Virus record (IMG/VR): IMGVR_UViG_3300030376_005461
Span: 2,850-66,849 of that record
Length of the DNA: 64,000 bases
From: a virus
Taxonomy: Duplodnaviria > Caudoviricetes
Reading direction: 5' to 3' (one strand)
In this document: positions 12,431 through 27,952 of the stretch, piece after piece
Numbering within the stretch: the stretch's first letter is position 1
How the letters are laid out: every line of letters begins with the position of its first letter
Translations under genes and position numbers: made by a program
Notes under the pieces: generated by a model
What the model was told of the DNA's origin: nothing
Seen by the model: only the letters and a program-made list of their open reading frames with translations
Database searches by the model: none

Positions 12431-12609
12431 AATTAAACGATGTACTGCGCTATATTTTTTTAATTCTTTTTTTATTTCAATAGCATTTGAAAAATTAATA
12501 CTTAAAGTAGTAAATACTATAGTTACTTGTCTGATTTTGCTTGTATTTTGTAGACCCCTTTGAATAAAAAAAAGAATTCATTAACATTAGAGCAGTACCA
12601 CATTTAATT
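12431..12609. promoter_or_regulatory. Divergent promoter region with an inverted pair of roughly 50-bp elements
   Basis: Minus copy 12431-12480 and plus copy 12560-12609 of TTGAAWAAAAAAAGAATT-N9-TAGMGCAGTA-N5/6-TTAATT. TATA boxes at about 12380-12387 (minus) and 12655-12660 (plus). Confidence 0.7.
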
Positions 12610-12684: not shown

Positions 12685-14142
12685 ATGGGGAAAGAAAAAT
12701 CACCTAGGTTAACAGGCGGACAAGAGATAGTCGAAAAATATGCGAAAAGTAACTCATTTTCTACAGAAATGGAGTTTGCACGTTTTTTGCACGAACTTAA
12801 CCCAAGTAAAAGTATTTCTGCTTGGAGAGGTAGCATTCAAAGATGGCGCAAAAAAGACCCGAACAATACATTTAGAAAATTAGATGTTGTAGACGAAAGT
12901 AACTTAGTTTCATCAGTAACTAATATTAGTGTATATTATGATAAAACTTCTGATATATACATTTCTAAGTTAAACAACGAACTTACCGCAGTAAAAGGTA
13001 ACGTACATAGACAGATGAGACACGCTTATTCTCAAGACGGGAGAAACATGACTATAGAAGAAATGAGTCGAGAGTTTAGTTTATCCCCTGTTTGGCTGAA
13101 CCAATACATTAAAGTTAATGGTTGGTCACATAATATGGATATTTTTACCAATGCTGAAATAGAATCAACTCCCGAAGACACACTAGTAAATACTTTGTTA
13201 GAAAGTAAAAGACAACTAGTAATAGAAAAGGCTAACAAAAAATATTGGAAAAAGGTTATAAAAGACGCAGAAACATTAACTAACTTAGAAGAAGCGTGGG
13301 CTAATGAATTTAAAGAATTGTTACCAAAACAACTTAAGGCTAATAATAGGGTTAAGCACATCAAAAAAGCAAAAGTAAAACCATATGCGGTTGTTTTATC
13401 CCCTACTGACTTACATTACGGTAAAGGTGGTTGGATAAACGAAGTAGGAGAAAAATATACATTAGATGAGGCTAGAAACAGACTTATTACTCGTACAGAA
13501 GATTTAATACACAGGCTATCCGGTAAACCCGAAAAAATTATTGTGGCTACAGGAAGCGATTGGTTTCACGTAGATAATGATTTAGGTTCTACTACAAAGG
13601 GTACTATGCAGGATAGAAGCGCTTCACCTGCCCAAATATTAATGGATGGGTGTAAACTAGCGAGAGAGCATATTGATTTGCTCAGACAAGTATGTCCTGT
13701 AGAAGTCGTATTTATGCGTGGTAATCACGATAGGCACTCATCACTAGCGTTAATGATGTATTTAGACGCAGTATATGAAAAAGCAAAAGACGTAAGCGTA
13801 ATTGTTAGCCCTAAAACTAGACAATACATTTCTTGGGGTAATAACCTATTAGGCTTTACTCATGGTGATGGGGTAAGGGGGGTTGATTTACCTGCTATTA
13901 TGGCAACAGAAGAAAGAGAGTCATGGGGTAAATGCGAACACCACACATGGTTTCACGGACATTTACATCATAGAAAACTTACTGAAACTTCGGGTGTTGT
14001 TATAGTACAATTACCTAGTTTGGCCGGCGCTGATAGATGGCATTATCATAAAGGTTATGTTATGGCTAGGCCGGGCTTATCCGCTCATCTTTTAGATAAA
14101 CAGTTAGGTTTAATAGGCAATCTCTTTTCTCCGGTGGTATAA
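12685..14142 (+). CDS. Calcineurin-like metallophosphoesterase with long N-terminal domain
   Basis: Motifs TDLHYG, GSDWFH, RGNHD, FTHGD, GHLHH. ATG 12685 preferred over the track TTG at 12670. Confidence 0.85.
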   Translation: MGKEKSPRLTGGQEIVEKYAKSNSFSTEMEFARFLHELNPSKSISAWRGSIQRWRKKDPNNTFRKLDVVDESNLVSSVTNISVYYDKTSDIYISKLNNELTAVKGNVHRQMRHAYSQDGRNMTIEEMSREFSLSPVWLNQYIKVNGWSHNMDIFTNAEIESTPEDTLVNTLLESKRQLVIEKANKKYWKKVIKDAETLTNLEEAWANEFKELLPKQLKANNRVKHIKKAKVKPYAVVLSPTDLHYGKGGWINEVGEKYTLDEARNRLITRTEDLIHRLSGKPEKIIVATGSDWFHVDNDLGSTTKGTMQDRSASPAQILMDGCKLAREHIDLLRQVCPVEVVFMRGNHDRHSSLALMMYLDAVYEKAKDVSVIVSPKTRQYISWGNNLLGFTHGDGVRGVDLPAIMATEERESWGKCEHHTWFHGHLHHRKLTETSGVVIVQLPSLAGADRWHYHKGYVMARPGLSAHLLDKQLGLIGNLFSPVV

Positions 14143-15647
14143 TGGCAAATCTCAATACAGATTTTGCGATGGCAAGGAGTAAGAAAGATGTTTCATATTT
14201 TTATAGGTGGCTTGGCTATACATGGGGAGAGCATATCGGCGAATGGATGGATATGTATGGCAAAAGGGGAGATGCTCAAGTTCATAGGGTTTGTGTTATT
14301 GCACCCCGTGACCACAGTAAATCTACTACTTTGCGTGTAAAACTACTACATCAAGCCTTATTTGACAAATGGCGAAACAAACCGTTTACGTGTTGGTTAT
14401 TTTCGGCTAGTAAAGATTTAGCAGTTAGAAGATTAGAAGAAATACGTGACGATATGAAACGTCACCCACAATTGTCTAGATACTTACATAAGAAAAGAGG
14501 TAATAAACTAGAGTTACATTTTACAAATGGTGCGTGGATTCGTGCTACATCTGTAGGTGCGGCTATTCGTGGTGAGCATCCGGCCTGTATTGCTTTTGAC
14601 GACGTACTAGACGATTCGGGAGAAATGAACTACGAAGCGATTAGGAATTGGTTTAGGAAGAAAATTACGCCTATGTTGTCGCCGGGAACGTCTATATTTG
14701 TTGTTGGTACTCCTATGAGTATGATGGACTTATATCATACTGAAATGCTACAGAATAAACAATGGAAATCTAAAAGTTGGGCTAGTGTTAAAAATTGGGA
14801 TGAGTACAAATCAAACCCCGATACAATTAAACCTATAGAGTTATGGCCGGAGTTTAGACCAATTGACTTCTTACTAGAACAAAAAGACGCTATGGGAGAA
14901 CTTTCTTTCATTCAAGAGTATATGTGTAAAGTTATTGATGATGAGGCATCTGTTTACCCACGTAACTTAACAAGGGCTAACCTAAACATGGATGCTATCT
15001 TTGAGCAAGAAAAGTTAAAAGACGGAAAATATGTAGTGGGTTTTGACCCCGCACATGGTTTAGGTCAAGATTATTCTGTAATGGTATGCTTAAAACAAGA
15101 TTCTGAGGGCTATGTACACTTAGTTAATCTATGGAGAAGAAATGACTTCCCACCGGACAAGCAAGCAGATATGATGATAGAGTGGAATAAGCGCTATGGT
15201 ACTCCTGCTTTTGCAGTTGAAGCAGTAGGTTTCCAACAGATGTATGAAAGTCTATTGGCACAAAAGGGTGCGGTTATAGATTACCGTGAAAGTAAAGTTA
15301 GTAATCGTACTTTAAAGCAAGGGTTATTAAATCGTATGAGAGTATGGTTTGAAAGAGAAATGATTGTTATGCCATACGGTAATGATTTTACTAGAAAGCA
15401 AGTTAATATACTTTTAGAGGAATTAGAAACTCACGCATGGAAAAACGGACTAATAGTAGATTTAGGAAGACATAACGATATTGCTATGGCGTTTGCTCAT
15501 GCTCTAGACCAATTTACATATAAAACTCCCGATACTCCTGTTATTATGAAAACTATGAAAAACGGGGAGTGGACAGGCGGTAGAGTATCTAGACCACAAA
15601 GAAGTGGTGGGTCGCTTGGCGGTAGAGTAATAAGGAGAAGTAGATAA
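14142..15647 (+). CDS. terL: Terminase large subunit
   Basis: Walker A-like APRDHSKST, IRGEHPACIAFDD (Walker B), coupling motif VGTP, RNase H domain GFDPA...HNDIAMA. Confidence 0.95.
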   Translation: MANLNTDFAMARSKKDVSYFYRWLGYTWGEHIGEWMDMYGKRGDAQVHRVCVIAPRDHSKSTTLRVKLLHQALFDKWRNKPFTCWLFSASKDLAVRRLEEIRDDMKRHPQLSRYLHKKRGNKLELHFTNGAWIRATSVGAAIRGEHPACIAFDDVLDDSGEMNYEAIRNWFRKKITPMLSPGTSIFVVGTPMSMMDLYHTEMLQNKQWKSKSWASVKNWDEYKSNPDTIKPIELWPEFRPIDFLLEQKDAMGELSFIQEYMCKVIDDEASVYPRNLTRANLNMDAIFEQEKLKDGKYVVGFDPAHGLGQDYSVMVCLKQDSEGYVHLVNLWRRNDFPPDKQADMMIEWNKRYGTPAFAVEAVGFQQMYESLLAQKGAVIDYRESKVSNRTLKQGLLNRMRVWFEREMIVMPYGNDFTRKQVNILLEELETHAWKNGLIVDLGRHNDIAMAFAHALDQFTYKTPDTPVIMKTMKNGEWTGGRVSRPQRSGGSLGGRVIRRSR

Positions 15648-15648
15648 T

Positions 15649-15996
15649 ATGCCTAGAGGAAGAAATAAGGCCGAAGGTAAAAGGCAACATAAGTATTCTA
15701 CAAGTTCTGTAAGAAGTTCTTATTGGACAACACCTGTACCTACAGGAAGCCCTAAACCCGGCCCTAAGAAAAGAGGAGTAGTCTATCGAGAAGCAATAGA
15801 TAAAGTTATTAACAGTTCTTTTATGGACGAATGGTGTACGTCAGAACAAATCGCATACGAAGCGAACAAGCATATCTCAAATCATTGGACGCAGTTGTCT
15901 ACTTTTAGTGTTTGTGCCATACTTAGAAAGTACGAAAAAGATGGCAAAATAGCGGTAAATCGCAAAGAAAAAAAGTATTACAGAAAAAAATTCTAA
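15649..15996 (+). CDS. Basic, probable winged-helix DNA-binding protein
   Basis: 115 aa, Lys/Arg-rich. Helix pattern TSEQIAYEAN...STFSVCAILRKY followed by a beta wing. Confidence 0.45.
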   Translation: MPRGRNKAEGKRQHKYSTSSVRSSYWTTPVPTGSPKPGPKKRGVVYREAIDKVINSSFMDEWCTSEQIAYEANKHISNHWTQLSTFSVCAILRKYEKDGKIAVNRKEKKYYRKKF

Positions 15997-16169
15997 AAAA
16001 ATTTTTAAAAATCGAGAGAGGTGGTTGGCGGTGCGGTCAACCCTTAAATAGGTGTTTTTGGGAACTAGTATATAATACTATCTATGATGCTACTATACAC
16101 AATGTTTAAGTACTTGTATACATACAGACAAATAGGCCGGTAAGGGGCTGACAAGGAGACTGAACACGT

Positions 16170-17033
16170 ATGACGCATAGAGAGACAGATAAAGCAACGC
16201 TAGAGATTGAGATAGATGATATAGATAGGGTGCATAGAATACATAAAGAATTATGTAATACCCCTATTGTACAAATCAAGTCAAAGAGAAATCAAATTAA
16301 TAAAAAATTACAAAATTCAGCAATAGATTTGACTAATTTAGTACCATCACTACATGAAGAAACACTGAATACACTCAGAATTAACGGATTAATGCCTATA
16401 ATTCAACCTAGCAAATCAGCAGTAAGTCATTATTCATATACTCAGCAATCAAAAGAATCATATGAGAAAGTAATGAAAAACACAAAAGCAATCAATAATC
16501 AAACTAAAAGATATATTTGTCCTAAATGCGATAAAATAGGTTGTTTTGTTAGAAGACATATTCTAGATAATGGTGAAATGGGATTCAAAAACGATACTAG
16601 GGGCGGCCTATGTGGTCAAACTGTTACTCTTGATGAAGCACTCAGTATTAAAAATACTAATATTTGGTTTGATAATTCTAACTTACCAATGTTTAACCAC
16701 AAAATTACAACAATAGAAATTTCATACATAAATAATTCATGGGTAATTAGTCCAACATATAATCAACCAAATAAACAATTATTTCAATATACAGGCATGA
16801 AAGGAGTTTCAGCAGTAGGTAACGAAAAACAAATCGCACCACAATATAGACGTAACTTAACAATTAACAAAAAGCAAAAACAAGTTTATCACAAATTCGC
16901 TGTTGCTTTCTTTGGTGATTTCTACGCCTTAGTTATGATAAATCATCAACATAATGCTGATGCAAAAATAACATTCGATTATCCACCAGTAGGAATTATT
17001 AACAACATCGGAATAAAAGGGGGTGAACAATAA
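16170..17033 (+). CDS. Hypothetical protein with CxxC motif
   Basis: 287 aa ORF with its own TATA (TTTAAGTA 16105-16112) and AGGAG RBS; contains ICPKCDKIGC. Confidence 0.6.
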   Translation: MTHRETDKATLEIEIDDIDRVHRIHKELCNTPIVQIKSKRNQINKKLQNSAIDLTNLVPSLHEETLNTLRINGLMPIIQPSKSAVSHYSYTQQSKESYEKVMKNTKAINNQTKRYICPKCDKIGCFVRRHILDNGEMGFKNDTRGGLCGQTVTLDEALSIKNTNIWFDNSNLPMFNHKITTIEISYINNSWVISPTYNQPNKQLFQYTGMKGVSAVGNEKQIAPQYRRNLTINKKQKQVYHKFAVAFFGDFYALVMINHQHNADAKITFDYPPVGIINNIGIKGGEQ

Positions 17034-17114
17034 ATGAAGAATCTAAAATATGATAAATTAGTTATCAGAACAGAAAGGGAAGATTGCATCTTTGAAATAT
17101 GGGAGTTGGCTTAA
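17034..17114 (+). CDS. 26-aa microprotein
   Basis: Not in track. TAAATG coupling at both ends: MKNLKYDKLVIRTEREDCIFEIWELA*. Confidence 0.5.
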   Translation: MKNLKYDKLVIRTEREDCIFEIWELA

Positions 17115-17198
17115 ATGAAATCTATCTTTGATGAGCCTTGTCCTATATGTGGATTTAGTATAGAAAGAGGGTGGATTTGCGAAATCTGCAACCAGTAA
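17115..17198 (+). CDS. 27-aa CPxCG zinc-finger microprotein
   Basis: Not in track. MKSIFDEPCPICGFSIERGWICEICNQ* has two Cys knuckles, as in archaeal CPxCG microproteins. Confidence 0.65.
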   Translation: MKSIFDEPCPICGFSIERGWICEICNQ

Positions 17199-17207
17199 AA
17201 AAAGGAA

Positions 17208-17225
17208 GGGGGGAGAAATCCCCCC
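17208..17225. terminator. G6-AGAAAT-C6 hairpin between convergent genes
   Basis: GGGGGG AGAAAT CCCCCC lies between the plus stop at 17198 and the minus stop at 17240, flanked by A- and T-tracts. Confidence 0.55.
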
Positions 17226-17239
17226 AACCAATTTTTATA

Positions 17240-17407
17240 TTACCACATAATTACGGTTTGACATAATTGGCATTTTTCGCCAACATCCATATTTTTCCAT
17301 TCTGTTTTTCTGTACCCGTAATATACTGCGGCACAACATGGACAACAACCATCAATTATTTTTTTCATCATTTCGTCTTTTTTCATTTGTTCATATTTAT
17401 TATTCAT
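17240..17407 (-). CDS. Cassette 1: Cys-rich (zinc-finger-like) microprotein
   Basis: Start moved to ATG 17407 (MNNKYEQ...CCPCC...CQLC). TATA-like TTATAA on minus at about 17470-17475. Confidence 0.6.
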   Translation of the reverse strand: MNNKYEQMKKDEMMKKIIDGCCPCCAAVYYGYRKTEWKNMDVGEKCQLCQTVIMW

Positions 17408-17663
17408 AGGTTTCCCTCTTTCCCCCTGTCTCCATTGAAACACGGTTAACGGTACATAGGGGGGTCTAGTTATAATACCTTTGGTTAAATGCTCATATTA
17501 GCCCTACGAAGTAATCAATTACATTAAGTGTATTTTTTACACTTACTTTATTTTTTACAGTAAGGTCAGCCCTACGAAGTAATGCTGTAATTTTGTAGGC
17601 ATATATTAGAGAGAGAAAAATCTTAGAGAGATTTCATATTTTTATGTTACCACTAAAGAGAGA

Positions 17664-17703
17664 CTTAATCGAGGGCGTAAGTAGCCCCCGACTAAGTTTT
17701 ACG
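17664..17703 (-). other. Conserved-loop hairpin, copy A
   Basis: Minus strand CGUAAAA-CUUAGUCGGGGG-CUACUUACG-CCCUCGAUUAAG: 12-bp stem, fully paired with two G.U only on this strand. Confidence 0.75.
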
Positions 17704-17722
17704 TTTAGTACTACGAAGAAAA

Positions 17723-17866
17723 TTATTCGATATGATGATGGTCTATATCTTCAATTATTTTTGCTACGATTAATTCTTTGATTGTTATATCAAAATTGTC
17801 TCTTATGTCTTCTTCAGTAATTTCTATATCTGCGGTCATACTAATTTGCATATCAATTGTTGTCAT
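17723..17866 (-). CDS. Cassette 2: 47-aa acidic microprotein
   Basis: Not in track. MTTIDMQISMTADIEITEEDIRDNFDITIKELIVAKIIEDIDHHHIE*; GGGGGTGAG RBS; TATA-like TTCATAAG upstream. Confidence 0.65.
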   Translation of the reverse strand: MTTIDMQISMTADIEITEEDIRDNFDITIKELIVAKIIEDIDHHHIE

Positions 17867-18080
17867 TTCGTTTCTCACCCCCTGTTCTAGTGAACTAACG
17901 TGTGAGTATCTGCTTATGAATGTATGGGTCTTATGTGTATCTGTTGCATCATGAGTCCTACGAAGTTTTAGTCCTACGAAGTTTTGTTTCTTTATAGTAG
18001 GCCTACGAAGTAGAGAGAGATTTGCGTAGAGATTATAAAGAGAGATTTTATTTATTTATATTATCAATTTTAGAGAGAGA

Positions 18081-18119
18081 TTAGAGAGAGGCGTAAGTAG
18101 CCCCTCTCTAATTTTACGC
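18081..18119 (-). other. Conserved-loop hairpin, copy B
   Basis: Minus strand GCGUAAAA-UUAGAGAGGGG-CUACUUACG-CCUCUCUCUAA: 11-bp stem with one G.U and the same 9-nt loop as copy A. Confidence 0.75.
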
Positions 18120-18150
18120 ATTCCGAACTAATTTCAACTAAGGATAATAT

Positions 18151-18354
18151 TTATCCGTTAATTGTAACTTTTTTATAATTGCTTACACCATTTCTGAATC
18201 CAGCAAATTTCCAACCGTTTTTAACACATACGTGTCTTTTATTGGTCGCAAATTCTGCTTCAACAGGGTAGCCCCACATATTGAAGTCATCCGGTTTGAT
18301 GTCTTTAGCAGTATATAATTTTCTACTTATTGTGTAGTTAATTTTTCCTCTCAT
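18151..18354 (-). CDS. Cassette 3: 67-aa basic hypothetical protein
   Basis: Track ORF with AGGAGA RBS; TATA-like TTCATATA at about 18430-18437 on minus. Confidence 0.65.
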   Translation of the reverse strand: MRGKINYTISRKLYTAKDIKPDDFNMWGYPVEAEFATNKRHVCVKNGWKFAGFRNGVSNYKKVTING

Positions 18355-18620
18355 GTTTATTTCTCCTAATTTCGCTTTTCACGTTTACGTCCGCTCGGCT
18401 TCTCGGATATTTGTGGGTTATACTATAAGTATATGAACCTTTCGATTTTAGGCCTACGAAGTAATAATACACCCGAAGGGGAAAGCATTATAAGGGTGCA
18501 TCTCGGTGCAATAACCCCCGGCAACCACTCCTAGCCCTACGAAGTAAAATCCGGTTAGTCCTACGAAGTTTTTTAAAAAAAACGTAGAGATAACCATAGA
18601 GATTAGCCCTACGAATTATA

Positions 18621-18782
18621 TTAGATTTTTCCGAAATCCCATCCGCAATCTCCATCAATATTAACATAATCACCGATACTATTAATTAAATGATTACATA
18701 AAATATGAATTATTTCATTTTTATTTTTCGCTTTATATTTTCTTAATTCTGTTTCTTCTATTTCTATTATTATTTCGTACAT
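18621..18782 (-). CDS. Cassette 4: 53-aa microprotein
   Basis: Not in track. MYEIIIEIEETELRKYKAKIKNEIIHILCNHLINSIGDYVNIDGDCGWDFGKI*; AAGGAGA RBS; TATA TTTAAGTA at 18890-18897 on minus. Confidence 0.65.
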   Translation of the reverse strand: MYEIIIEIEETELRKYKAKNKNEIIHILCNHLINSIGDYVNIDGDCGWDFGKI

Positions 18783-19049
18783 TTTTTATCTCCTTAATTT
18801 TTGAATATTTTTGAGCCGAATCCAATATTGTTTTCCTTCATGTGTCGTGTCCAATCTGTTCCGGCTCTATATGTCGGTTAGTATATAGGTACTTAAACAT
18901 TTGCTTTGTAGCCCTACGAAGTTACTTAGTGTAATTTCTGCACCGTTTAGCCCTACGAAGTTTTTTAATATATGCGTAGACCTATAGAGATTAGAGAAAA
19001 ATTCAAAGAGAGATTTTCATAAATTTATTCATGTATGAATATTAGAGAT

Positions 19050-19472
19050 TTAGAGAAAAATTTCTTTCATTGTTTTAAAATCAAAAATCGCTTCTTGATT
19101 ATACATTTTACCCATAGTTAATGCGTGTTTTAAATCTCGATATACTGAAACTATATCAATAATTAACGTATTTCCATTTTTTATCCATCCGCCAAAAGTG
19201 GGGTTTAATGGTGCTAATAATGGATTTTGTTCTTCAATTACATCAAAAAAAGCCATAGCCGCACTAATACCATGATTTAATATTGTCCTCAATTCTTCAT
19301 TATTTGAAAATTCTCGAACCCAAAAATGGCCGACATCATTCGCAACGGAATAACGACCATATGTCATATAATTTTCATTTTTTAGAAGTACATTTTTATT
19401 AGTGATAAATGTAAATCCGTCGCTCTCTAATAATTCATTATACATAATAGGTAAGTCCGCCCATTCGCTCAT
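19050..19472 (-). CDS. Cassette 5: 140-aa hypothetical protein (GGW...NQEAIFD motif)
   Basis: Track ORF with GTGATT RBS; TATA TTATAAGC at about 19494-19501 on minus. Confidence 0.7.
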   Translation of the reverse strand: MSEWADLPIMYNELLESDGFTFITNKNVLLKNENYMTYGRYSVANDVGHFWVREFSNNEELRTILNHGISAAMAFFDVIEEQNPLLAPLNPTFGGWIKNGNTLIIDIVSVYRDLKHALTMGKMYNQEAIFDFKTMKEIFL

Positions 19473-20341
19473 AATTTAATCACATGAAGCATCGCTTATA
19501 ACCTTTTCCTTTTTAGGTCTACGAAGTTTATATGACTCCCGTAGGGCGAAAGTATATATACCCCCATCCCATCTCAGATTAGGCAAAGTGTACATGGGGA
19601 TATAGGCCTACGAAGTTACCTTCTTTTTTTGATTCCTCTAGAGAGACTAAAGACCTATATAAACCTATCCGCTCCCTGCATCACTCATGCGTCAAGGCAT
19701 AGTGCTTATATATGTTTCGGCTTCCTGCATCATTCGCTTATAAGGCCTACGAAGTTTTGTATTAATTCGTAGGACTGTTATAGAGAGATTTGATAGAGAC
19801 TTCGTAGGGCTAGAAAATTAGGTTTTGACAGGCTCGCAGTACAACGGTTTTGAAAAAAGGGCTTTGTGGCCGTGCTTTTTGGTTGATTTTTCGATTTCTT
19901 TGAAAAGTGTGATACTGCTACGATGCAATTTTTACACTTAATTTATAAAGAAACAGGCCTACGAAGTTAAAACAGGCTTATATACTTTTCGGTGGTGTTT
20001 TTTGGTGTAGAAAACTCACCGAGTGTATCTAGAAGCACTAAGGTTTTTTGACTACACTAGATGAGAAAAAGAACTTCGTAGGAGTAGGTAAGATTAAATA
20101 TAGAATTACTTTTTCGCCAAAAATAAAATAGGCCAGTCCTACGAAGTATAGTGATACAAAAAAACACAAAGTTTATGAAGGCCTACGAAGTTCGCTCAGT
20201 TAGCATTTTTTATATAGTAGATGTAGTCCTACGAAGTACACTGGGGCGGTTCGGGTCAAGTTATCCCTTATATATGTTACCCCTACGTGTTCAACAATTG
20301 CTCACGACATATTGATATAGTAGAGGGTGTAATTTTAGGTT

Positions 20342-20629
20342 ATGAGAGGAAGCAAACAGATAACAGAAGACATGAAGCATAAGATATTAGAGTATCATAT
20401 TAGGAGACAAAAAGTCTATTCTAATACTGATGTTGAAATAGTTAACGATTTATATGATGAAGTAAGAGAATTTGTCATTGAAGTCGGTGGTTATGAATGG
20501 AATTATCATAGAGTTTGTGATAATGAAGATGAAGCAATATTAGAAAAAGAACATTTGAATAGAACTGGTTGTGGTCAATTCAGAAATTTCAAGATACTAA
20601 ATTTATACACAATTTGGGAGAGGATTTAG
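20342..20629 (+). CDS. Early hypothetical protein (first of the plus-strand early arm)
   Basis: 95 aa ORF, tightly coupled to the next gene. Confidence 0.6.
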   Translation: MRGSKQITEDMKHKILEYHIRRQKVYSNTDVEIVNDLYDEVREFVIEVGGYEWNYHRVCDNEDEAILEKEHLNRTGCGQFRNFKILNLYTIWERI

Positions 20630-20845
20630 ATGTCAGAAATAGACCCTTTTTGGTTAGTTTGGAGAGATTTTCATTGTTGGACTCAAGAAGACGGATTACA
20701 GTTAACTTCATGGAATGAAAGACTATATTCAACAAGGCAAATTCTCAAAAAATTAAGAGAGCAATTTCCCGAAAAAGAATGGAGAAGTTCAAGTCAATCA
20801 TGGATAAAAAGTGTTCAATATAGATTTAAAGAGGATTGGTTTTAA
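20630..20845 (+). CDS. Hypothetical protein, Trp-rich
   Basis: 71 aa, TAGATG coupling. Confidence 0.55.
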   Translation: MSEIDPFWLVWRDFHCWTQEDGLQLTSWNERLYSTRQILKKLREQFPEKEWRSSSQSWIKSVQYRFKEDWF

Positions 20846-21321
20846 TGAAAAAACCATGTAGATATAAAGCCTGTAAAGGTAAAATCCATATCAATGAAAA
20901 ATGTCCAATAGCCTCAAAAAGAGGCTCTAATGGTGGCAAAAATGGAACTAAAGAATCTAAACAAAGATTTGGTCTTCAAAATGGAAATGCCAAACATCTT
21001 AAAAAATCGGGTTATAGGGAATGTTGTAATACTCTAAAATCACAAAATCATGATGAGAATTGTAAAAATGCGAGAATTAGAATATTATCTAAAAAGTTAG
21101 ATTTAAGGTTAAAATCAAGACAAATCACATATTCAAGACCGGAAATCTCATGGAAATTAGATTCAGCAATTTCAGTTCAAGGAGTAAAAATGATGTTAAG
21201 AGGAATAAATGCGTTTTGTGATGGATGCAAAAAACCTATGAAAGCAATCGAAGCCTCAAAAATTCATAAAAACGATATTACAAGTCACAATCCTAGAATT
21301 ATATGTGGAGTGTGTAACTAA
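20845..21321 (+). CDS. Basic Cys-containing hypothetical protein
   Basis: ATG 20845 overlaps the upstream stop; CDGC...CGVC zinc-ribbon-like C-terminus. Confidence 0.55.
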   Translation: MKKPCRYKACKGKIHINEKCPIASKRGSNGGKNGTKESKQRFGLQNGNAKHLKKSGYRECCNTLKSQNHDENCKNARIRILSKKLDLRLKSRQITYSRPEISWKLDSAISVQGVKMMLRGINAFCDGCKKPMKAIEASKIHKNDITSHNPRIICGVCN

Positions 21322-21869: not shown

Positions 21870-22013
21870 GAAAAATGAAGAATTTTAGTAAATTATATGA
21901 AGAATATTATGCGAGATTAGGAAAAGAAAAAATGAAGGAAAAAGTAAATTCAAATGCCGGACGCTTGCGAAGGCAACAGAATTATTAATAAAGGAGAAAG
22001 GAGAGGAAAAAAT

Positions 22014-22403
22014 ATGAGAAATAGAGGAACAGAATGGAAGCCCTGCGAGAGAGTTAATGGTGAAGTAATGATGAGAGTCAATATAGACCCGATTGTATAT
22101 GATATAACAGATATAATTGTAGATTTTTATAGTGATTTAATGGATGATGGTTGCTTACTTGATTTAGCGTTGATGTCAAAAAAACAAATCAAAAACGAAT
22201 TAAAACGACACGCTTCATATAGAGGTTATTATTATGATAAAGGGATTGATTCTTGGACTGGTATTTATAGCGATGAAGAACATGATTACGATATGAATAA
22301 GAAAAGAAAAAAAGCCATCGAAACTATAAGAAAAATTATAGTTAAGCATTTTCCCGAATTCAAAGATAGCAAAGTAGATTTATCAAGGTGGGGATTACAA
22401 TGA
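22014..22403 (+). CDS. Early hypothetical protein
   Basis: Start moved to ATG 22014, downstream of the 21960 promoter and a GGAGAGG RBS. Confidence 0.6.
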   Translation: MRNRGTEWKPCERVNGEVMMRVNIDPIVYDITDIIVDFYSDLMDDGCLLDLALMSKKQIKNELKRHASYRGYYYDKGIDSWTGIYSDEEHDYDMNKKRKKAIETIRKIIVKHFPEFKDSKVDLSRWGLQ

Positions 22404-22714
22404 AACATACAGTAACAAAATTTGAATTTATAGATAGTATTATGAGAGTACATGATAACGCAATAAATGAGGCTTTTACAACCGAAGCATTAGAACTTTT
22501 ATGGTATTGGTACGATTCTATTTATGATGCTTCTCTTTACGAAGATAGGGAATTTTACCCATCAGATATTTCGGGTGAATGGACTCAATATAAAAATATA
22601 GAAGAATTTAGAGAAAATTATAGCGATGATTATGAAGATTTAGATGATATACGAGATGAAACCATAGTTATAGAAATTGATGACGAATCATTTTTGGCGA
22701 TGAATACAATTTAG
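22400..22714 (+). CDS. Acidic early protein
   Basis: ATGA-coupled; 28 of 104 residues are D/E. Confidence 0.6.
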   Translation: MKHTVTKFEFIDSIMRVHDNAINEAFTTEALELLWYWYDSIYDASLYEDREFYPSDISGEWTQYKNIEEFRENYSDDYEDLDDIRDETIVIEIDDESFLAMNTI

Positions 22715-22770
22715 TTAACGCTTGCGAGAGAAATAATAAGGTTTAATAAGGAGAAAGAAGAGGAATAAAT

Positions 22771-23163
22771 ATGACTGAGAGCAAAACACAAGAAATTGAA
22801 TACGGAAATTGGAGAAGTAACACAAAAGGTTGGGTGATGTTAACTAGAAGTGATTTAGTAGCATTACTTAGAGAAATGGATGGTTTTATGGATAGGCATT
22901 ATAGTGGCGAAAGAAGACATTGTGATACCGTTTCGCTTCAATTAGAAGTAGTTAATTATACAGAAGAAAAAGGGTTACATATGAGTAATGGAATAAACAG
23001 TAAGTTTCGTGGACGCATACCGGAAACTGCTGATATTAGGCCAATTACAAGTGAAGAGTTTGACGCATGGAAAGGTAGAGGAACGGATTGTCTATCTTCA
23101 ATGACTTTAGAAGAATATATCGCTAAAGGTTCATTTAGAACAGACAAAGAGGTGAAGGAATGA
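22771..23163 (+). CDS. Early hypothetical protein
   Basis: 130 aa, directly after the 22718 promoter. Confidence 0.6.
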   Translation: MTESKTQEIEYGNWRSNTKGWVMLTRSDLVALLREMDGFMDRHYSGERRHCDTVSLQLEVVNYTEEKGLHMSNGINSKFRGRIPETADIRPITSEEFDAWKGRGTDCLSSMTLEEYIAKGSFRTDKEVKE

Positions 23164-23462
23164 ATATGATTGATACAAAAAAATATAAAGGGCATACAAA
23201 AGGTGATGACGAAATCGGTTGGAGAATAAACAACAATTTTGTTTCAAATGGTAAATCCCCTAATTACAGATTCATCGGTTACATTCAACATAACGACAAC
23301 GGAATAAAAGAAATAATCGAGTTTTCTGATGCTGATGCAAACTTGATAGCGGACGCACCAATACTGCTTGAAGAAGTAAAGAGGTTGCGTAGGCGTATAG
23401 ATGAGATACATAATTCTCAATGGGCTAAGTATTTATCAATAAGAAGGGGTACTGAGGAATGA
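23160..23462 (+). CDS. Phage protein with Ead/Ea22-like C-terminal motif
   Basis: DADANLIADAPILLEEVKRLR matches the common phage DA.lIA.Ap.LL.e...LR motif. Confidence 0.5.
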   Translation: MNMIDTKKYKGHTKGDDEIGWRINNNFVSNGKSPNYRFIGYIQHNDNGIKEIIEFSDADANLIADAPILLEEVKRLRRRIDEIHNSQWAKYLSIRRGTEE

Positions 23463-23748
23463 TGATTGGCGGTAAAAAAAGAAGTAGAGCGGAACTAATT
23501 CATGATTTATGGTCGGTTATGACACTTAATATCCATGATTTAACAAATGCTGAGATTATAGATTTAACTTTTATCATAAAAGAAAAAGCGAGGTCGGGCA
23601 AAAATTAGAATCTACGGGGTCGGTTAAGTTTTCCTCTCAATAAAATTATCATGTGGCCGACTCCAAAGATTACTAATGACGCTTGCGAAGTAAATAGAAG
23701 GGTTTATTAACGAGGAACTTTTAGATTGAAACATAAGGAGCGAAACAA

Positions 23749-24036
23749 ATGGAAGAAGAAGAAGAATATGAACAGTATTGTAAAAAGTGCGGTAAAAAAT
23801 ATGTAACATCAGACATAGAAGAAGAATTATGTGATAAATGTGAATACCAAACAGAAAGCGAAATTGCTGATGAATTGGAACAAGTTAGATACCAACAGGG
23901 TTTAATGGGCGATGATTTAGATTATGAAGAGAAAGGAATACTAGAAGATATGGGAATAGAAGATGACCCACATTATGATGAAGATGACATTTATGAAATG
24001 TTTGGCGAAAGCGAAGAAGAATACGGAGAGGATTAA
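23749..24036 (+). CDS. Zinc-ribbon protein, extremely acidic
   Basis: CKKC-X13-CDKC; 38 of 95 residues are D/E; follows the 23677 promoter. Confidence 0.65.
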   Translation: MEEEEEYEQYCKKCGKKYVTSDIEEELCDKCEYQTESEIADELEQVRYQQGLMGDDLDYEEKGILEDMGIEDDPHYDEDDIYEMFGESEEEYGED

Positions 24037-24323
24037 AATGTATAAATGTCGCATACCTTCTTGTAATAATGAGACATCAAGTATGATATATCGCTTTGAA
24101 ACAAAAACAGGTACAACATATAAAAATGCCCATATTTGTCAAAACTGTTATGTAAGTTTAAGGAGTGAGTAAAATGAAATTTATGAGGCCATATAAAGGA
24201 AAATTAGTGACAAAAGAAGAATATTGGACGCTTGTGAAGGAAGACGAAGGGTTTATAACTAAGGAACAATACAACAAATTATATCACAACAACGTGAAGA
24301 ACAAATACAAAGGGGAATAAACA

Positions 24324-24485
24324 ATGAAAATAAAAAATAAAATAGATAAAGAACAAATTGCGGAAGTCAAAAGAGATTTGAAAGCATATAAAATAAAGGT
24401 TTCGGGTACTTTTGCTGAATGCACTGAAAGATTAGAAAAAGAGTTAGAAAGAATAAACCAAATAAGAAAGGAGAATAAACAATGA
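24324..24485 (+). CDS. 53-aa SAP-domain-like microprotein
   Basis: Not in track. MKIKNKIDKEQIAEVKRDLKAYKIKVSGTFAECTERLEKELERINQIRKENKQ*; first gene after the 24227 promoter. Confidence 0.55.
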   Translation: MKIKNKIDKEQIAEVKRDLKAYKIKVSGTFAECTERLEKELERINQIRKENKQ

Positions 24486-25516
24486 GAAACGAAAGAAATA
24501 TAAGAAGCACAATGATGAAAAAAGATTATAGAAATGTCGCACATTTAATACCTGCGGCTTTCGATATGATTGGACAAAAGGCCGTAGGTGAAACGAGTGC
24601 CGAAGTACTCAAAAACGCCAAAATGGACTTTAGGATAGGAACAGAACCGCTATATGATAGTAAAGGTAATGAACTCAAAAGTAAATTTATGAGGATATTT
24701 AGGGAAGATACAAACCAAACCCTAAGTGTGATGACTAAATCTTATGACGTATTACAAAATTATGAATTGATTGGGATTGCCGATAAATTAATACCATCGG
24801 GCGATGTAGATTTTGATAGAATAGGCATGGTAAATAATGGTGAAAGATTATTCGTATCTTTCCAAACCCCCGATTCTTATACTTTTGCTAATGGCGATGT
24901 TGATGAGACTTTAGAAAGTTACTTTTATCTTGTAAATAGTAATGATGGTTCGGGTGGAGTAAAAATTGTACCCGCACCTAGACGTTTGTTTTGTAAAAAT
25001 CAAGCCTCATTGTTAGAAGCATTTTTAAGACGGATAGGTATTGACCCGAAGATGTTGGTAATACGCCATAGTAGTCTTATGCGTGGTAGAATAGATGAAT
25101 TAATACCCGCTTTAGGTTTAGTAAATCAAGCAATAGAGCAATTTGCCATAGAATCACAACAGTTATTAACCACTGAAATGACCGTAGGCGATAGAACGGA
25201 GTACTACATAGATACTTTAGGGCTAAAAGTAGAAGAAGAATTAATTAGTGCTGATAATCCATACGGATTGGGTACTAGAGGCAAAAATACTCTTGAACAA
25301 TTGATAGAAATAGAAGGTTATGAGCGGAATAACATAGGTATTATGGCTGATACCCAATATCAAGCATATAATACAGTGACGGATTTTATAGACCATCGGT
25401 GGACTGTTGATAAAAGCGGAAAAATCAGTGAGAAGAGGGTAGAATCAGCAATCATAGGCTCAAAAGCGAGAACTAAATCAAAAGCATGGGAAACCTTGAT
25501 AGAAATGGCGGCATAA
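24482..25516 (+). CDS. DUF932-family phage/plasmid protein
   Basis: Motifs LSVMTKSYDVLQN, NGERLFV, LVNSNDGS, RLFCKNQ, IRHS and QAYNTVTDFIDH are characteristic of DUF932. Confidence 0.85.
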   Translation: MRNERNIRSTMMKKDYRNVAHLIPAAFDMIGQKAVGETSAEVLKNAKMDFRIGTEPLYDSKGNELKSKFMRIFREDTNQTLSVMTKSYDVLQNYELIGIADKLIPSGDVDFDRIGMVNNGERLFVSFQTPDSYTFANGDVDETLESYFYLVNSNDGSGGVKIVPAPRRLFCKNQASLLEAFLRRIGIDPKMLVIRHSSLMRGRIDELIPALGLVNQAIEQFAIESQQLLTTEMTVGDRTEYYIDTLGLKVEEELISADNPYGLGTRGKNTLEQLIEIEGYERNNIGIMADTQYQAYNTVTDFIDHRWTVDKSGKISEKRVESAIIGSKARTKSKAWETLIEMAA

Positions 25517-25518
25517 AC

Positions 25519-25728
25519 ATGAGTGTAGAAGTATCAATAAATTTACCGTGTTCAACGGGAAAGGTTTTCTTAAATCTAGGTCATATATCGGCTTTAGTTT
25601 TAGGTCACGATAGAAAAACGCTTTATGCACATATGCTTTCGGGAACTATATTCACTATAAATGGTACACAAACACAAAGAGATTTGTTGTTTACACAATG
25701 GAATCAGTATAATGGGGTTGATGAATAA
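25519..25728 (+). CDS. Hypothetical protein
   Basis: Start moved to ATG 25519; coupled to neighbours. Confidence 0.5.
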   Translation: MSVEVSINLPCSTGKVFLNLGHISALVLGHDRKTLYAHMLSGTIFTINGTQTQRDLLFTQWNQYNGVDE

Positions 25729-25994
25729 TGACTGATATAAAGGATATAGAAGAAATAGAACTACACTTCAATTCGCATATGACTTTCGAGATAGAAAACC
25801 TGTCTGACGAGAACCTTGAGTTATGGACATCGGGTAGAGTCAAGAGATTTTACATCAAGTATTGTACACTACACATGGAGTTAGATGATGGTACTATGGT
25901 AGAAGAGTTTATCTACACCGAGACTACTGAGGATACGAAGTGGCCGACAAAGACCTTTGTTAGGTATGGTGATGTTTGGAGTGGGTGGAATTGA
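25728..25994 (+). CDS. Acidic hypothetical protein
   Basis: 88 aa, TAATG coupling. Confidence 0.55.
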   Translation: MTDIKDIEEIELHFNSHMTFEIENLSDENLELWTSGRVKRFYIKYCTLHMELDDGTMVEEFIYTETTEDTKWPTKTFVRYGDVWSGWN

Positions 25995-26203
25995 GACCCG
26001 ACAACGGTATATATAATATATCACAACATACTTTAACCGTAAAAGAAGTTTTAGAAGAGGATTTTGATATAACTAAATACAATCTTAAAGATAGGGAGTT
26101 TGTAATAAGTCTAGTCAATATGCTACGTTCATCTTACAATAAATTTATAGATGATGTTCTAGAAATATCAGCCAAATTTAGTGCCGGAGTGGGTGAAGAA
26201 TGA
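25976..26203 (+). CDS. Hypothetical protein
   Basis: Track ORF; exact start uncertain. Confidence 0.45.
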   Translation: MEWVELRPDNGIYNISQHTLTVKEVLEEDFDITKYNLKDREFVISLVNMLRSSYNKFIDDVLEISAKFSAGVGEE

Positions 26204-26456
26204 AGTGGGAAGAATACAGAAAAGCGTATCGAGAATATTTAGCGAGGAAGAAACAATGGAAGAAGTAGAGGATTTTATCAAAGCCATTGTTAGGGTAGAT
26301 TATGAACCTAGTAATTACAAAAGAGTAAACGAATTACTAGAAGTTTTGTTCTACGCACATACTTTAAGCGTAAAAGAAAGAGTTGAAATTAGTGAAATGT
26401 TAGTAGATTATATCAGATATGATGTACCACAACAGGTGCGTGACGCTTGTGCATGA
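26181..26456 (+). CDS. Hypothetical protein
   Basis: Track ORF; its 3' end carries the 26441 promoter motif; start uncertain. Confidence 0.45.
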   Translation: MPEWVKNEVGRIQKSVSRIFSEEETMEEVEDFIKAIVRVDYEPSNYKRVNELLEVLFYAHTLSVKERVEISEMLVDYIRYDVPQQVRDACA

Positions 26457-26495
26457 AGTAGATACCCTTATAAGTAATGTAGTAGAGGTAGTAAT

Positions 26496-27044
26496 ATGAA
26501 TATATTTTTTATAGACGAACAACCGGAAGAAGCGGCACGTAACTTGTGCCTAAAACACAAACCTAAAATGTGCGTAGAATCAGCACAAATGATGGCATCA
26601 GCATTAATCAGACATAATGCCGTACCCGATTCTATGCCTCTTACAAAATCCGGTACTCGTTATCGTGGTGGCTACCAATTTCATCCGTCTACTCGTTGGG
26701 CGGGAGAATGTGTAGAAAATTTCCGTTGGCTCGCTCGCCATGCTTTACAACAATGTATATCATATACAGAAACATACGGCAAAATTCATGCGTGTGAGCA
26801 ACCTATTCGTGAAATGTCTAGTCATTATGCTATTAGTAATATGCCGAGTAATGGTGGTCTTACAGATATTCCTTTGGCTATGAACGAAGAGACTACACGT
26901 CGTGTTCCATTGACTCAAGCAGTTCAAGAGTATCGTGATTATTATTTCCGTAAAACTAATGTCATGACAATAGCATGGCCGGAAAATCAAACTCCTACAT
27001 GGTGGGAAGAAGTATGCGTAAGGAATGGTGGTATAGTATGTTAA
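26496..27044 (+). CDS. Pyrimidine-dimer DNA glycosylase-like protein (DenV/Pyr_excise superfamily)
   Basis: N-terminus MNIFFIDEQPEEAARNLCLKHKPKMCVESAQM plus FHPSTRW and YGKIHAC match this phage family. Confidence 0.75.
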   Translation: MNIFFIDEQPEEAARNLCLKHKPKMCVESAQMMASALIRHNAVPDSMPLTKSGTRYRGGYQFHPSTRWAGECVENFRWLARHALQQCISYTETYGKIHACEQPIREMSSHYAISNMPSNGGLTDIPLAMNEETTRRVPLTQAVQEYRDYYFRKTNVMTIAWPENQTPTWWEEVCVRNGGIVC

Positions 27045-27283
27045 AATTAGGACAAAAAATAATAAGAGCGATTGAAGAACACGATGAACAATTCTATCAG
27101 AATTACATCGAGAAGTACACGGAGTATCCCGATGAAGAAGATGATAAGTATTATGATGAGAATTACACCTTGACCCAAAATCTTGCGAACTACGATGATG
27201 ACGTGGACATAGCAGAAATGGTAACAATTATTAATTTACTAAGCAATATAATAGTTAAGCATCGAAGAGGCGAAGAAGAATGA
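27038..27283 (+). CDS. Acidic hypothetical protein
   Basis: Start moved to ATG 27038 (MLKLGQK). Confidence 0.5.
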   Translation: MLKLGQKIIRAIEEHDEQFYQNYIEKYTEYPDEEDDKYYDENYTLTQNLANYDDDVDIAEMVTIINLLSNIIVKHRRGEEE

Positions 27284-27761: not shown

Positions 27762-27952
27762 TGGACATGAAAATAACAGGTACTTTCATGGTAAAACAAA
27801 CATTAACAATGTTTGTAGAGGGCTGTGAACACGCTCTATTAGGACAAGAATGTATGGCGAATAGAACTCCACCATATGAAATGGGCTATCAATATGGTCT
27901 AAGTATTATGAGCAGATTTACGCTTGCGAAAGAAAACAAAGAACTTAAATAA
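27761..27952 (+). CDS. Hypothetical protein
   Basis: 63 aa; its 3' end carries the 27920 promoter motif. Confidence 0.5.
   Translation: MDMKITGTFMVKQTLTMFVEGCEHALLGQECMANRTPPYEMGYQYGLSIMSRFTLAKENKELK

Follow-up and report, generated by a model that had tools for sequence, protein, structure and literature searches.

A variable array of small genes beside a repeated 15-mer in a probable archaeal tailed virus and its likeness to the PeSL cassettes of T4-type phages

Small genes that alternate with copies of a short repeated sequence raise the question of whether the repeat serves the expression of these genes, their exchange, or both. Such a locus lies in a 64,000-nt stretch of viral DNA (positions 2,850 to 66,849 of the IMG/VR record IMGVR_UViG_3300030376_005461), which is called the window here and to which the coordinates refer. 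An earlier note on this DNA described the locus as a modular gene-shuffling array of single-gene cassettes bounded by a shared decamer. The reading favored here, with moderate confidence, is that positions 17240-20340 form a hypervariable accessory-gene region of PeSL-like transcription units, which are tagged at the promoter by a 15-mer and shuffled by homologous recombination. The cassette array and the comparison with PeSL cassettes thus hold from the earlier proposal, but a dedicated integron-like system finds no support, as no integrase was found in the 47 ORFs scanned and the element has a fixed promoter position.

The virus is tailed, marine and probably magrovirus-like with an archaeal host, the host being assigned from gene content only. 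Signs of such a host are PolB, an archaeal-type ArsR, an ERCC4+HhH nuclease, an RFC-like clamp loader and a metallophosphatase exonuclease gene next to TerL. Magroviruses, which are tailed viruses of Marine Group II / Poseidoniales archaea, combine a caudoviral structural module with replication genes of archaeal type, and the presence of TerL, portal, tape measure, PolB, RFC-like ATPase, ERCC4-HhH and PD-(D/E)XK nuclease matches the description of magroviruses (PMC5434244), while MCM, primase and PCNA were not recognized by Pfam. Group C of the magroviruses lacks a ligase and carries a PolD-exonuclease-like gene among its structural genes (PMC5434244), to which the metallophosphatase exonuclease gene of the window may correspond. 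A crAss-like virus with a virion RNA polymerase, a reading drawn from the giant ORFs, was considered and rejected: the one of 1108 aa codes for a tape measure, and that of 2364 aa has no PHROG match and lies beside tail genes. The earlier view that this is an archaeal virus agrees with the sequence, in which archaeal promoter signals go together with single-gene units.

The five minus-strand ORFs previously listed are all present, and the features of the locus are collected in Table 1. Cassettes E, B, C and A are regarded as real genes because diverged homologues occur in other arrays; cassette P is seen only in the window and in the 99% identical contig L125, and is therefore without independent support. 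On the TerL side, the border gene c21/F2 is found in all decamer-group arrays that reach that far, and Pfam and PHROG searches assigned it to no family. No family was found for the first genes of the plus-strand arm, including c23, and the ESM Atlas gave no usable lead for this 161-aa protein.

Table 1. Features of the array and its borders (window coordinates).
Feature	Position	Strand	Remarks
c3, small gene directly after TerL	15649..15996	+	left conserved border; syntenic in most TerL loci
c21/F2, conserved gene, 287 aa	16170..17033	+	array border on TerL side
Cassette P (g1), 55 aa, Cys-rich	17240..17407	-	last in transcription order
Spacer 1	17495..17722	-	15-mers at 17503, 17571; hairpin GTGTA-T6-TACAC at 17528
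Spacer 1, downstream parts	AGAGAGA tracts 17607-17663; hairpin ~17664-17703		hairpin follows cassette E
Cassette E (g2), 47 aa, acidic	17723..17866	-	homologues in 8 arrays, neighbours varied
Spacer 2	17867..18150	-	15-mers at 17957, 17973, 18002; hairpin ~18081-18119
Cassette B (g3), 67 aa	18151..18354	-	found in 16 arrays
Spacer 3	18355..18620	-	15-mers at 18453 (proximal), 18536, 18560, 18608 (one mismatch)
Cassette C (g4), 53 aa	18621..18782	-	occurs at two different array positions
Spacer 4	18783..19049	-	15-mers at 18913 (proximal), 18952; AGAGA tracts 18977-19049
Cassette A (g5), 140 aa	19050..19472	-	most widespread cassette
ORF-free divergence zone	19473..20341	between minus-strand array and plus-strand arm	nine to ten more 15-mers
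Plus-strand arm, first genes (95, 71, 161 aa)	20342..21321	+	
c23, 161 aa, Cys-rich basic	20836-21321	+	right border; kept beside array in other lineages

The decamer CCTACGAAGT has 18 exact copies in the entire 66,849-bp virus record (16 on the plus and 2 on the minus strand), all of which lie within window positions 17503-20237. When up to one mismatch is allowed, 22 matches are found against 3.1 expected, and the maximum in 100 shuffles was 7. Its occurrence is restricted to 2.9 kb of the genome, with a bias toward one strand. Each decamer position that had been listed proved correct, with 19518 being the one-mismatch copy TCTACGAAGT, but the array end at 19616 cut the field too short, since nine more copies are present in the ORF-free stretch 19607-20237. 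The decamer itself is real, although it is not the full repeat unit: the consensus of 124 distinct instances from 12 arrays is a 15-mer, w-A-CTTCGTAG-G-n-C-T-A-A on the gene strand, and 92% of these instances have the orientation of the genes. A second repeat of AGAGA type occurs as had been described, with 13 of the 17 forward AGAGAGA copies of the window inside the array and none there on the reverse strand. At the sequence level, every spacer carries the element, a TATA box and a leader upstream of a gene, and hairpins and AGAGAGA/AATCTCTCT tracts downstream of one; spacer 2 has four AATCTCTCT-type tracts on the gene strand, and TATA-like sequences are present in spacer 3 (TTCATATA, 18430-18437, 15 nt from the proximal 15-mer) and spacer 4 (TTTAAGTA, 18890-18897). 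An explanation of the motif as an oligo-T terminator fits the T-rich variants of L008 and L027 but not CCTACGAAGT, and was rejected as a general one.

The distance of 15-16 nt from decamer to TATA box, noted previously for cassettes 3-5, was confirmed by re-measurement, and the same order of proximal element, nCTAAAA, about 15-16 nt and a TTATAAG-like box is found for cassettes A, B, C, D and K in many arrays. In cassette A, the 15-mer (19518-19527) is followed by 16 nt, TTATAAG (19495-19501), 22 nt and the ATG at 19472. This cassette has no SD, the element lies 45-46 nt from the ATG in each of four alleles that have diverged to about 50% identity, and the mRNA is probably leaderless, judging from this layout. 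The spacing is not uniform across promoters: a 25-nt hairpin stands between element and TATA in many of them (about 46 nt), a hairpin of ACTAGGTGTA-A5-TACACTTAGT type being shared at this place by many promoters, and the promoter of cassettes P, O and H has an element-to-TATA spacing of 26 nt. A second motif, GACGCTTGYGA (8 copies against 0.74 expected), belongs to the plus-strand arm, where it precedes a TATA box by 13-14 nt with the ATG about 22 nt downstream. Because this class occupies an equivalent promoter position, the genome appears to use class-specific upstream elements, and the 15-mer, which stands about 16 nt before TATA and has a counterpart class with equal geometry, is read as an upstream promoter element.

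The same geometry bears on the possibility that the repeat acts in RNA, in which case the array would yield a long precursor transcript, with ACUUCGUAGG as a site of processing or protein binding in the RNA between genes. The strong bias of the element toward gene orientation and the location of copies in the stretch from a stop codon to the start of the following gene would suit such a role. On the other hand, the distance from the element to TATA, and in cassette A to the leaderless ATG, is constant, which points to a constraint at the DNA level; dyads of GTAGGCCTAC type have no loop and cannot fold as RNA hairpins; the word takes the form of 16-bp palindromes in other lineages, as sites bound by dimers typically do; the reverse copies of the divergence zone are directed toward the plus-strand arm; and an Rfam search of 16900-20500 revealed no RNA family. 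An RNA element is thus considered decidedly unlikely.

The locus is not peculiar to this virus. In 37 loci, synteny holds across the structural genes, TerL and c3, and the ORFs that follow them are mostly unclustered, which marks the zone as a variable region. An equivalent zone, several kb long and equally placed, is present in every relative whose sequence continues beyond TerL, with roughly 15-70 copies of a word of its own. These lineage-specific words share the core YTAC-R-AA, and the small genes in the zone are mostly unique. The words include GTTACAAAA with 71 copies in L008 and 73 in L027, TGCTACAAA with 42 copies in L033, and the palindrome ACTACAAATTTGTAGT in L013, L015 and L023. At least 12 modules were found in L033, regularly ordered as T-run, half-site, palindrome and second half-site, abutting an A-run and TTATAA. 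Different arrangements are seen in L025 and L026, with 13 copies in tandem inside 220 bp and a DUF932 gene between inverted clusters, and in L008, whose repeat runs have a 13-15 bp period.

The distal 15-mer copies and the ORF-free zone are left unexplained by a simple promoter role. In this zone (19473-20341), which is a candidate origin and/or divergent control region, 15-mers in both orientations surround AT-rich stretches, and the only two exact reverse copies (19799 and 20073) are located here. The zone is 87.5% identical to that of L090 and more conserved than cassettes A and B, and its pattern of forward and reverse copies is retained in L090, L102, L113 and L124. The copies could accordingly be iterons, that is, sites of an initiator or partition protein centered on the ORF-free zone, with the promoter link being secondary (autoregulation or silencing). 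The nine to ten copies in this AT-rich and comparatively well-conserved zone, the tandem and inverted clusters of L025 and L026 and the periodic runs of L008 all speak for this explanation, which is nevertheless judged unlikely: copies are spread across 3-7 kb in step with gene starts and have no single center, the proximal copy keeps a fixed spacing to TATA, GC skew tracks gene orientation and gives no independent origin signal, and no initiator gene was identified beside the zone.

Comparison among relatives revealed a turnover of cassettes. Arrays of the decamer group were gathered by a stricter pattern search of metagenome contigs; a decamer-pair scan of viral contigs had yielded mainly coding repeats that are unrelated and spaced by multiples of 12. 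In the 19 arrays with this decamer, cassette sets differ and one cassette changes position, so that conserved decamer spacers with differing genes, number and order, as anticipated in the earlier note, are indeed seen in relatives, the change of order in one case. The order is B-C-A in the window, L125, L102, L114 and L123, and cassette C lies beyond A, with its orientation kept, in L002/L122, L124, L113, L119, L090, L093 and L115. L102 is without exactly the stretch that holds cassette P (window 17200-17495), and has the unrelated cassette D in place of cassette E across window 17717-17954; spacer 1 is 90% identical between the two despite different neighboring genes. Cassette B is only 45% identical to the alleles of L002 and L004, compared with 90% for TerL, and homologues of cassette A occur also in the distant lineages L027 and L028.

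Identities along the arrays are mosaic. The block 18440-18869 is 86% identical to L090 1170-1600, compared with 70-76% in the flanking cassettes. Between L002 and L004, structural and TerL DNA is 83% identical and 2.3 kb of the array is 99.4% identical, starting at TTAGCCCTACGAAGT (L002 about 5344-5360, L004 about 12445-12462). Junctions in the window were located at 17495, 17954 and 18440. The indel of cassette P and the replacement of E by D both end at the edge of a 15-mer, the latter at 17954, which is the first base of AGTCCTACGAAGT in spacer 2. Of the ends of long HSPs, 30% lie no more than 10 nt from an element, against 16% in the null (null maximum 21%); part of this enrichment is due to the alignment itself, since conserved words lengthen HSPs. 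The proposal that breakpoints coincide with decamers holds for several junctions, but others are found at the start codon or at the 3' end of a gene. Cassette P shares its promoter and leader with the unrelated genes O82 and H160 of other arrays; P, O and H have been swapped behind one shared promoter and leader, and thus their junctions are near the ATG. An indel in L025/L026 has no motif at either end. No circular cassette contigs, which would be the counterpart of the excised mini-circles of PeSL cassettes, were found, and 0 of 18 related contigs were circular, which says little.

These junctions are also the evidence on which a dedicated integron-like system can be weighed, in which a site-specific recombinase or a recombination-directing protein would act on the 15-mer as its core site, to excise and insert cassettes. 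Several junctions lie exactly at the promoter-side edge of the element, cassette C was relocated without a change of orientation, and all cassettes share one orientation with the element in direct repeat. However, the enrichment of junctions at elements is just two-fold, those of P, O and H fall near the ATG behind their common promoter and leader, and the L025/L026 indel ends without motif. The element also keeps a fixed distance from the promoter, a second class in the genome has equal geometry, and each cassette appears to have a promoter of its own, in contrast to the promoterless cassettes of integrons. The impression of the earlier note that no dedicated recombinase is evident agrees with a Pfam scan of 47 window ORFs, in which integrase, recombinase and transposase domains were absent, although divergent enzymes could escape such a scan. 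A dedicated system of this kind is very improbable.

In the favored reading, a unit on the minus strand would have one to three 15-mers (A-CTTCGTAG-G-n-CTAA). About 16 nt of A-rich sequence, at the place of the BRE, would then lead to a TATA box from which transcription would start, and the single small gene would either be leaderless or stand behind a long leader that has a strong SD. Pyrimidine tracts, a hairpin or both would follow the gene as probable terminators. The 15-mer itself most likely serves as an upstream promoter site, of activator or operator type, to which a DNA-binding protein with sequence specificity would bind, and would mark one regulatory class of promoters. This reader protein is probably encoded by the virus, because the word varies by lineage and its place and use are constant. 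Since the spacers are directly repeated along the array, general homologous recombination could delete, insert, replace or move whole units, either within one genome or between co-infecting relatives, and unit expression would stay intact. This would be the PeSL mechanism of T4-type phages executed with archaeal promoter parts. There is a slim chance, no better than that given to the RNA element, that the reader of the 15-mer also synapses or nicks the spacers, in which case gene capture would be active, integrase-free, promoter-coupled and private to each lineage; cassette excision, capture and relocation would then be a targeted process, and word and reader would co-evolve.

One candidate reader is c3, which is predicted to have a winged-helix DNA-binding fold. 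Its AlphaFold model (pLDDT 79.5) gave winged-helix domains of Fur, PadR/LmrR and BlaI as the best Foldseek rows at E 0.02-0.08, with no row at E ≤ 0.001. The naming of c3 as the reader was rejected, as its putative recognition helix shows no visible co-variation with the motif variant. Other candidate DNA-binding proteins are c23, an ArsR-like protein (28818-29906) and a protein with a weak HTH (30143-30439).

The five cassettes and their neighbors have no match in Pfam or PHROGs and no recognizable family or fold. A search of cassette A against 5.8 billion proteins found only nine unnamed metagenome proteins, and a protein search of viral contigs led again to L002 and L004 and to no further relatives. 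Its structure model is confident (pLDDT 92), and no convincing PDB match was obtained for it by Foldseek or VIA-align wide (best Z 5.1).

These findings may provide a promoter grammar for viruses of apparently uncultured ocean archaea, composed of two class-specific upstream elements, a TATA position and leaderless starts; no mention of a promoter was found in the magrovirus papers searched. A defined regulon of fast-turning accessory genes would be a natural place to seek host-takeover or anti-defence functions, and the pair of word and reader could be found by DAP-seq or EMSA without culture of the host. Moreover, natural variation points to regulatory spacers as exchange points in archaeal viruses, as in T4-type phages.

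Several known systems resemble the array in part. Integrons (IntI, attI, attC) likewise have stacks of single genes in the same orientation between repeated boundaries, with contents that vary among relatives. They differ in that no tyrosine integrase was found here (47 window ORFs, Pfam), that attC sites are imperfect inverted repeats of 57-141 bp whereas the boundaries here are two to three direct copies of an asymmetric 15-mer, that integron cassettes depend on a common promoter whereas a separate TATA-like box precedes every cassette here, with the distance conserved, and that the junctions here are not confined to one site. In archaea, activator and operator sites are known beside BRE/TATA, such as those of Ptr2-type activation and the repeats in early promoters of SSV1 that are bound by F55. 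The 15-mer is similar to these as a short specific site upstream of BRE/TATA that is partly dyad-symmetric, often multiple and would define a co-regulated set, and would differ from them in being reused as a substrate of recombination.

Among archaeal tailed viruses, the haloarchaeal myovirus HGTV-1 has a motif of TATA plus inverted repeat before most left-arm ORFs (Sencilo et al. 2013, as described in PMC3950731), which, according to that description, its authors likened to PeSLs and proposed to act in transcription control and genome shuffling. Both viruses have many small ORFs, each with a TATA-bearing motif upstream, but, on the same account (PMC3950731), HGTV-1 belongs to another host group, has another motif, and the proposal was made from the motif alone, whereas comparative evidence from 19 arrays and a family-wide survey is available here.

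The closest comparison is with the promoter-early stem-loop (PeSL) cassettes in hyperplastic regions of T4-type phages (Arbiol et al. 2010, PMC2839356; Comeau et al. 2014, PMC4122927). Both consist of short composite modules of promoter and terminator or stem-loop that recur along a variable region, with small, non-essential ORFan genes between them. Single genes have been inserted, deleted or replaced among close relatives in either system, and crossovers fall inside the modules: between -10, SD and ATG in PeSLs, and in the array at the edge of the 15-mer, within the leader or at the ATG. Neither has a known dedicated recombinase, and the units of both are transcriptionally insulated, here as judged from sequence. 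As there is no sequence homology and the virus is not T4-like, the array is regarded as an analogue of PeSLs and not as a member of their family. Its promoter would be archaeal (TATA, an A-rich BRE position, leaderless or SD-led) instead of sigma-70, its terminator-like parts are pyrimidine tracts with occasional hairpins, and it has an extra 15-bp upstream element in two to three copies per spacer, the word of which differs between virus lineages, implying a private, co-evolving reader protein.

The five small minus-strand ORFs of the window (17240-19472) are present exactly where an earlier note had placed them, and its decamer array was likewise confirmed: all 18 exact copies of CCTACGAAGT in the whole 66,849-bp record (16 plus, 2 minus) lie within window 17503-20237. 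With one mismatch permitted, 22 matches were found versus 3.1 expected from shuffles. The repeat field runs past the end assigned in that note, across an ORF-free zone, as far as 20342, where the first plus-strand gene starts. The word AGAGAGA is similarly local: of 17 forward copies in the window, 13 are in the array, and the reverse strand has none there. By pooling 124 distinct instances from 12 arrays, a longer element of approximately 15 bp was defined, whose consensus on the gene (minus) strand is w-A-CTTCGTAG-G-n-C-T-A-A and which has the gene orientation in 92% of the instances.

Features of the window
Feature	Position (strand)	Remarks
TerL	14142-15647
Metallophosphatase exonuclease gene		immediately upstream of TerL
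Predicted winged-helix protein gene	15649-15996 (+)	always directly after TerL
Cassette P	17240-17407 (-)
Cassette E	17723-17866 (-)
Cassette B	18151-18354 (-)
Cassette C	18621-18782 (-)
Cassette A	19050-19472 (-)
Cassette A, element	19518-19527
Cassette A, TTATAAG	19495-19501
Cassette A, ATG	19472	22 nt on from TTATAAG
ORF-free zone	19473-20341
GACGCTTGYGA copies	21960-38156 (+)	8 copies
Family B DNA polymerase	42524-44734
2364-aa ORF	48296-55390 (-)	adjoins tape measure
Portal-like protein, 1108-aa tape measure, minor tail proteins		encoded in window
RFC-like clamp-loader ATPase; ERCC4+HhH nuclease		encoded in window
PD-(D/E)XK nuclease; archaeal-type ArsR domain; RecA-like AAA_24 protein		encoded in window

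The sequences preceding each cassette gene were aligned on the nearest element. In cassettes A, B, C, D, and K (D and K occur in related arrays), the element is followed by nCTAAAA, about 15-16 nt of A-rich sequence, and a TTATAAG/TTTATAT-type box. No Shine-Dalgarno sequence was seen at the cassette A start in this alignment, and the distance from element to ATG is 45-46 nt in four alleles whose proteins are only about 50% identical; judged from sequence, this spacing matches that of archaeal leaderless promoters. Leaders of 60-130 nt, with a GGAGGTGA-type ribosome site at the end, precede the remaining cassettes. A common hairpin of the ACTAGGTGTA-A5-TACACTTAGT type intervenes between element and TATA in many promoters, and the element-TATA spacing is therefore mainly either about 16 or about 46 nt; the promoter common to cassettes P, O, and H has a spacing of 26 nt.

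A second motif, GACGCTTGYGA (0.74 copies expected), was found on the plus-strand arm, with a TATA-like box 13-14 nt downstream and an ATG about 22 nt further, so that starts of this class appear to be mostly leaderless. As it occupies the same pre-TATA position, the genome uses two or more promoter classes, with a separate upstream word for each. Mainly because of this second class, the 15-mer is interpreted as an upstream promoter element in preference to a recombination site; a role of the element at the RNA level is less likely. The core ACGCTTGYG also lies just past the array of the related contig L008 despite a different array word, and the GACGCTTGYGA class may thus evolve more slowly than the array word. 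In addition, the region upstream of a plus-strand 287-aa gene (16101-16140) resembles the cassette C promoter/leader (18861-18901, minus) on the opposite strand, and window 18861-18901 has an equivalent match in contig L102 (2654-2693, 85% over 41 nt).

A pattern scan of metagenome contigs identified 17 further arrays with the same decamer. Cassette maps, obtained by calling decamer-free minus-strand genes and clustering them, revealed gain, loss, and replacement of cassettes within a loosely kept order, with two different positions for cassette C.

Cassette maps and lineage words in the window (WIN) and related contigs
Contigs	Cassettes (plus-strand order)	Word	Copies
WIN, L125	P-E-B-C-A
L102, L114, L123	D-B-C-A
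L002, L122	L-E-D-B-F-A-C
L004, L116	H-D-B-F-A
L124	E-H-D-B-F-A-C-K
L113, L119	D-B-F-A-C-K
L090, L093	O-(D?)-B-A-C
L103	O-E-B-A
L008		GTTACAAAA	71
L027		GTTACAAAA	73
L033		TGCTACAAA	42
L013, L015, L023, L024		palindrome ACTACAAATTTGTAGT	15-23
L025, L026, L035		TATCTACAA	22-36
L019, L020		CCTACAAAA	5-7

Between the window and L002/L004, TerL proteins are 90-91% identical versus only 45-49% for cassettes A and B. L002 and L004 themselves share 83% identity over structural and terminase genes and 99.4% over 2.3 kb of the array, the switch being located at TTAGCCCTACGAAGT. Identity to L090 is 76% for B, 86% for C, 70% for A, and 93% for the plus arm. The ORF-free zone, which contains element copies in both orientations, is more conserved than the cassette genes (87.5% identical to L090 versus 70-76% for A and B), and its forward/reverse pattern is kept in L090, L102, L113, and L124; it is a candidate origin or divergent control region. 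Within it, TTTATAAA stands 7 nt past the decamer at 19958 and could drive transcription of a short non-coding RNA. Beyond this zone, a 159-161-aa Cys-rich gene is first on the plus-strand arm in L113 and L124 and third in the window (20342-21321) and L090, behind 95-aa and 71-aa genes. L093 (oriented) follows the order of the window across the array. Its similarity stops at window 20053, which is 20 nt short of the reverse element at 20073, and unrelated minus-strand ORFs lie beyond (L093 about 4630 onward); either the contig is an assembly chimera or the repeat zone was the site of a large rearrangement. Two contigs have non-viral starts (L099:1-30, Illumina-adapter-like; L097:1-22, C4A4 telomere-like repeats), and such contig ends are untrustworthy.

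Several exchange junctions could be located. L102 lacks cassette P, the gap covering window 17200-17495 with the extended element beginning at 17500, and D replaces E across 17717-17954, with AGTCCTACGAAGT beginning at 17954. The transposed C block starts at 18440, a little past the next promoter's proximal element, and ends at 18869, close to the predicted start site. Junctions in P/O/H lie near the ATG because one promoter and leader are common to these genes, and on the left the P and E events end at the 3' end of the gene. The motif is absent from the ends of a 276-bp indel between L025 and L026. In 12 arrays, an element was no more than 10 nt away from 30% of the ends of long alignments, versus 16% for random positions (500 trials, maximum 21%), a figure inflated by conserved words lengthening alignments. 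L090, L103, and L115 end at or right after an element, as would be expected at points where assembly paths diverge.

PeSL (promoter-early stem-loop) crossovers have been reported between the -10, SD, and ATG (PMC2839356), and the spread of crossovers within conserved regulatory sequence here is similar, which agrees better with homologous recombination than with a recombinase acting at one site. The interpretation in the earlier note is partly supported: cassettes are gained, lost, replaced, and moved, and a dedicated recombination system is not supported, since junctions are spread and no integrase or recombinase domain was found by Pfam among the 47 ORFs scanned. With all spacers in direct orientation, units would be excised or inserted by recombination without inversions, which would explain the uniform gene orientation.

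The layout is found across the family. By retrieving 37 loci around TerL homologues (62-93% identity), a multi-kb zone dense in a lineage-specific word was observed at the same place in every locus reaching past TerL, and these words have a common core, YTAC-R-AA. L033 contains at least 12 successive modules of regular layout: in each, an oligo-T run precedes a first half-site, a 16-bp palindrome follows with about 30 nt on either side, and a second half-site adjoins an A-run and TTATAA ahead of the gene; L027 follows the same logic. Clustering of all ORFs indicated that synteny holds in all loci for the structural genes, TerL, and the small gene that follows it, and that repeat-zone ORFs are mostly confined to one locus each. 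The word varies by lineage and its place and use stay constant, which suggests a reader protein that co-evolves with it and is probably encoded by the virus. The predicted winged-helix DNA-binding protein encoded after TerL could act as a regulator, or it could recognize DNA in the manner of a small terminase, with its gene after TerL instead of before; its helix does not clearly track the lineage word. Tandem word runs in L025, L026, and L008 look iteron-like, and a single protein may serve both replication and transcription. In the L025/L026 lineage (L025:8478-8697 and 10481-10629; L026:5274-5513), 13 copies of TCTACAAA stand in tandem over 220 bp in 14/24-bp steps, and an inverted cluster lies beyond a 513-555-aa DUF932-containing gene, an arrangement that looks like iterons flanking a gene.

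No family was found for the cassette proteins. The cassette A protein, whose homologues extend to the distant lineages L027 and L028, gave a confident AlphaFold model (pLDDT 92, pTM 0.83) with no convincing PDB match (Foldseek, VIA-align wide; best Z 5.1), possibly a new fold. TerL is at most 25% identical to known phages, and the relatives come from marine metagenomes. Magroviruses are tailed viruses whose assigned hosts are Marine Group II archaea, and magrovirus group C has a PolD-exonuclease homologue within the structural module (PMC5434244); the gene content of the window fits this description, group C in particular, and the host is probably archaeal. The 2364-aa ORF, which has no PHROG match, presumably encodes a protein of the tail or of host recognition.

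Two known systems come closest: the PeSL cassettes of T4-type phages (PMC2839356, PMC4122927) and a TATA-plus-inverted-repeat motif of the haloarchaeal virus HGTV-1, which has already been likened to PeSLs (PMC3950731). The window array works like PeSLs and is not homologous to them. What differs here is the use of archaeal promoter parts together with a lineage-specific 15-bp upstream element.
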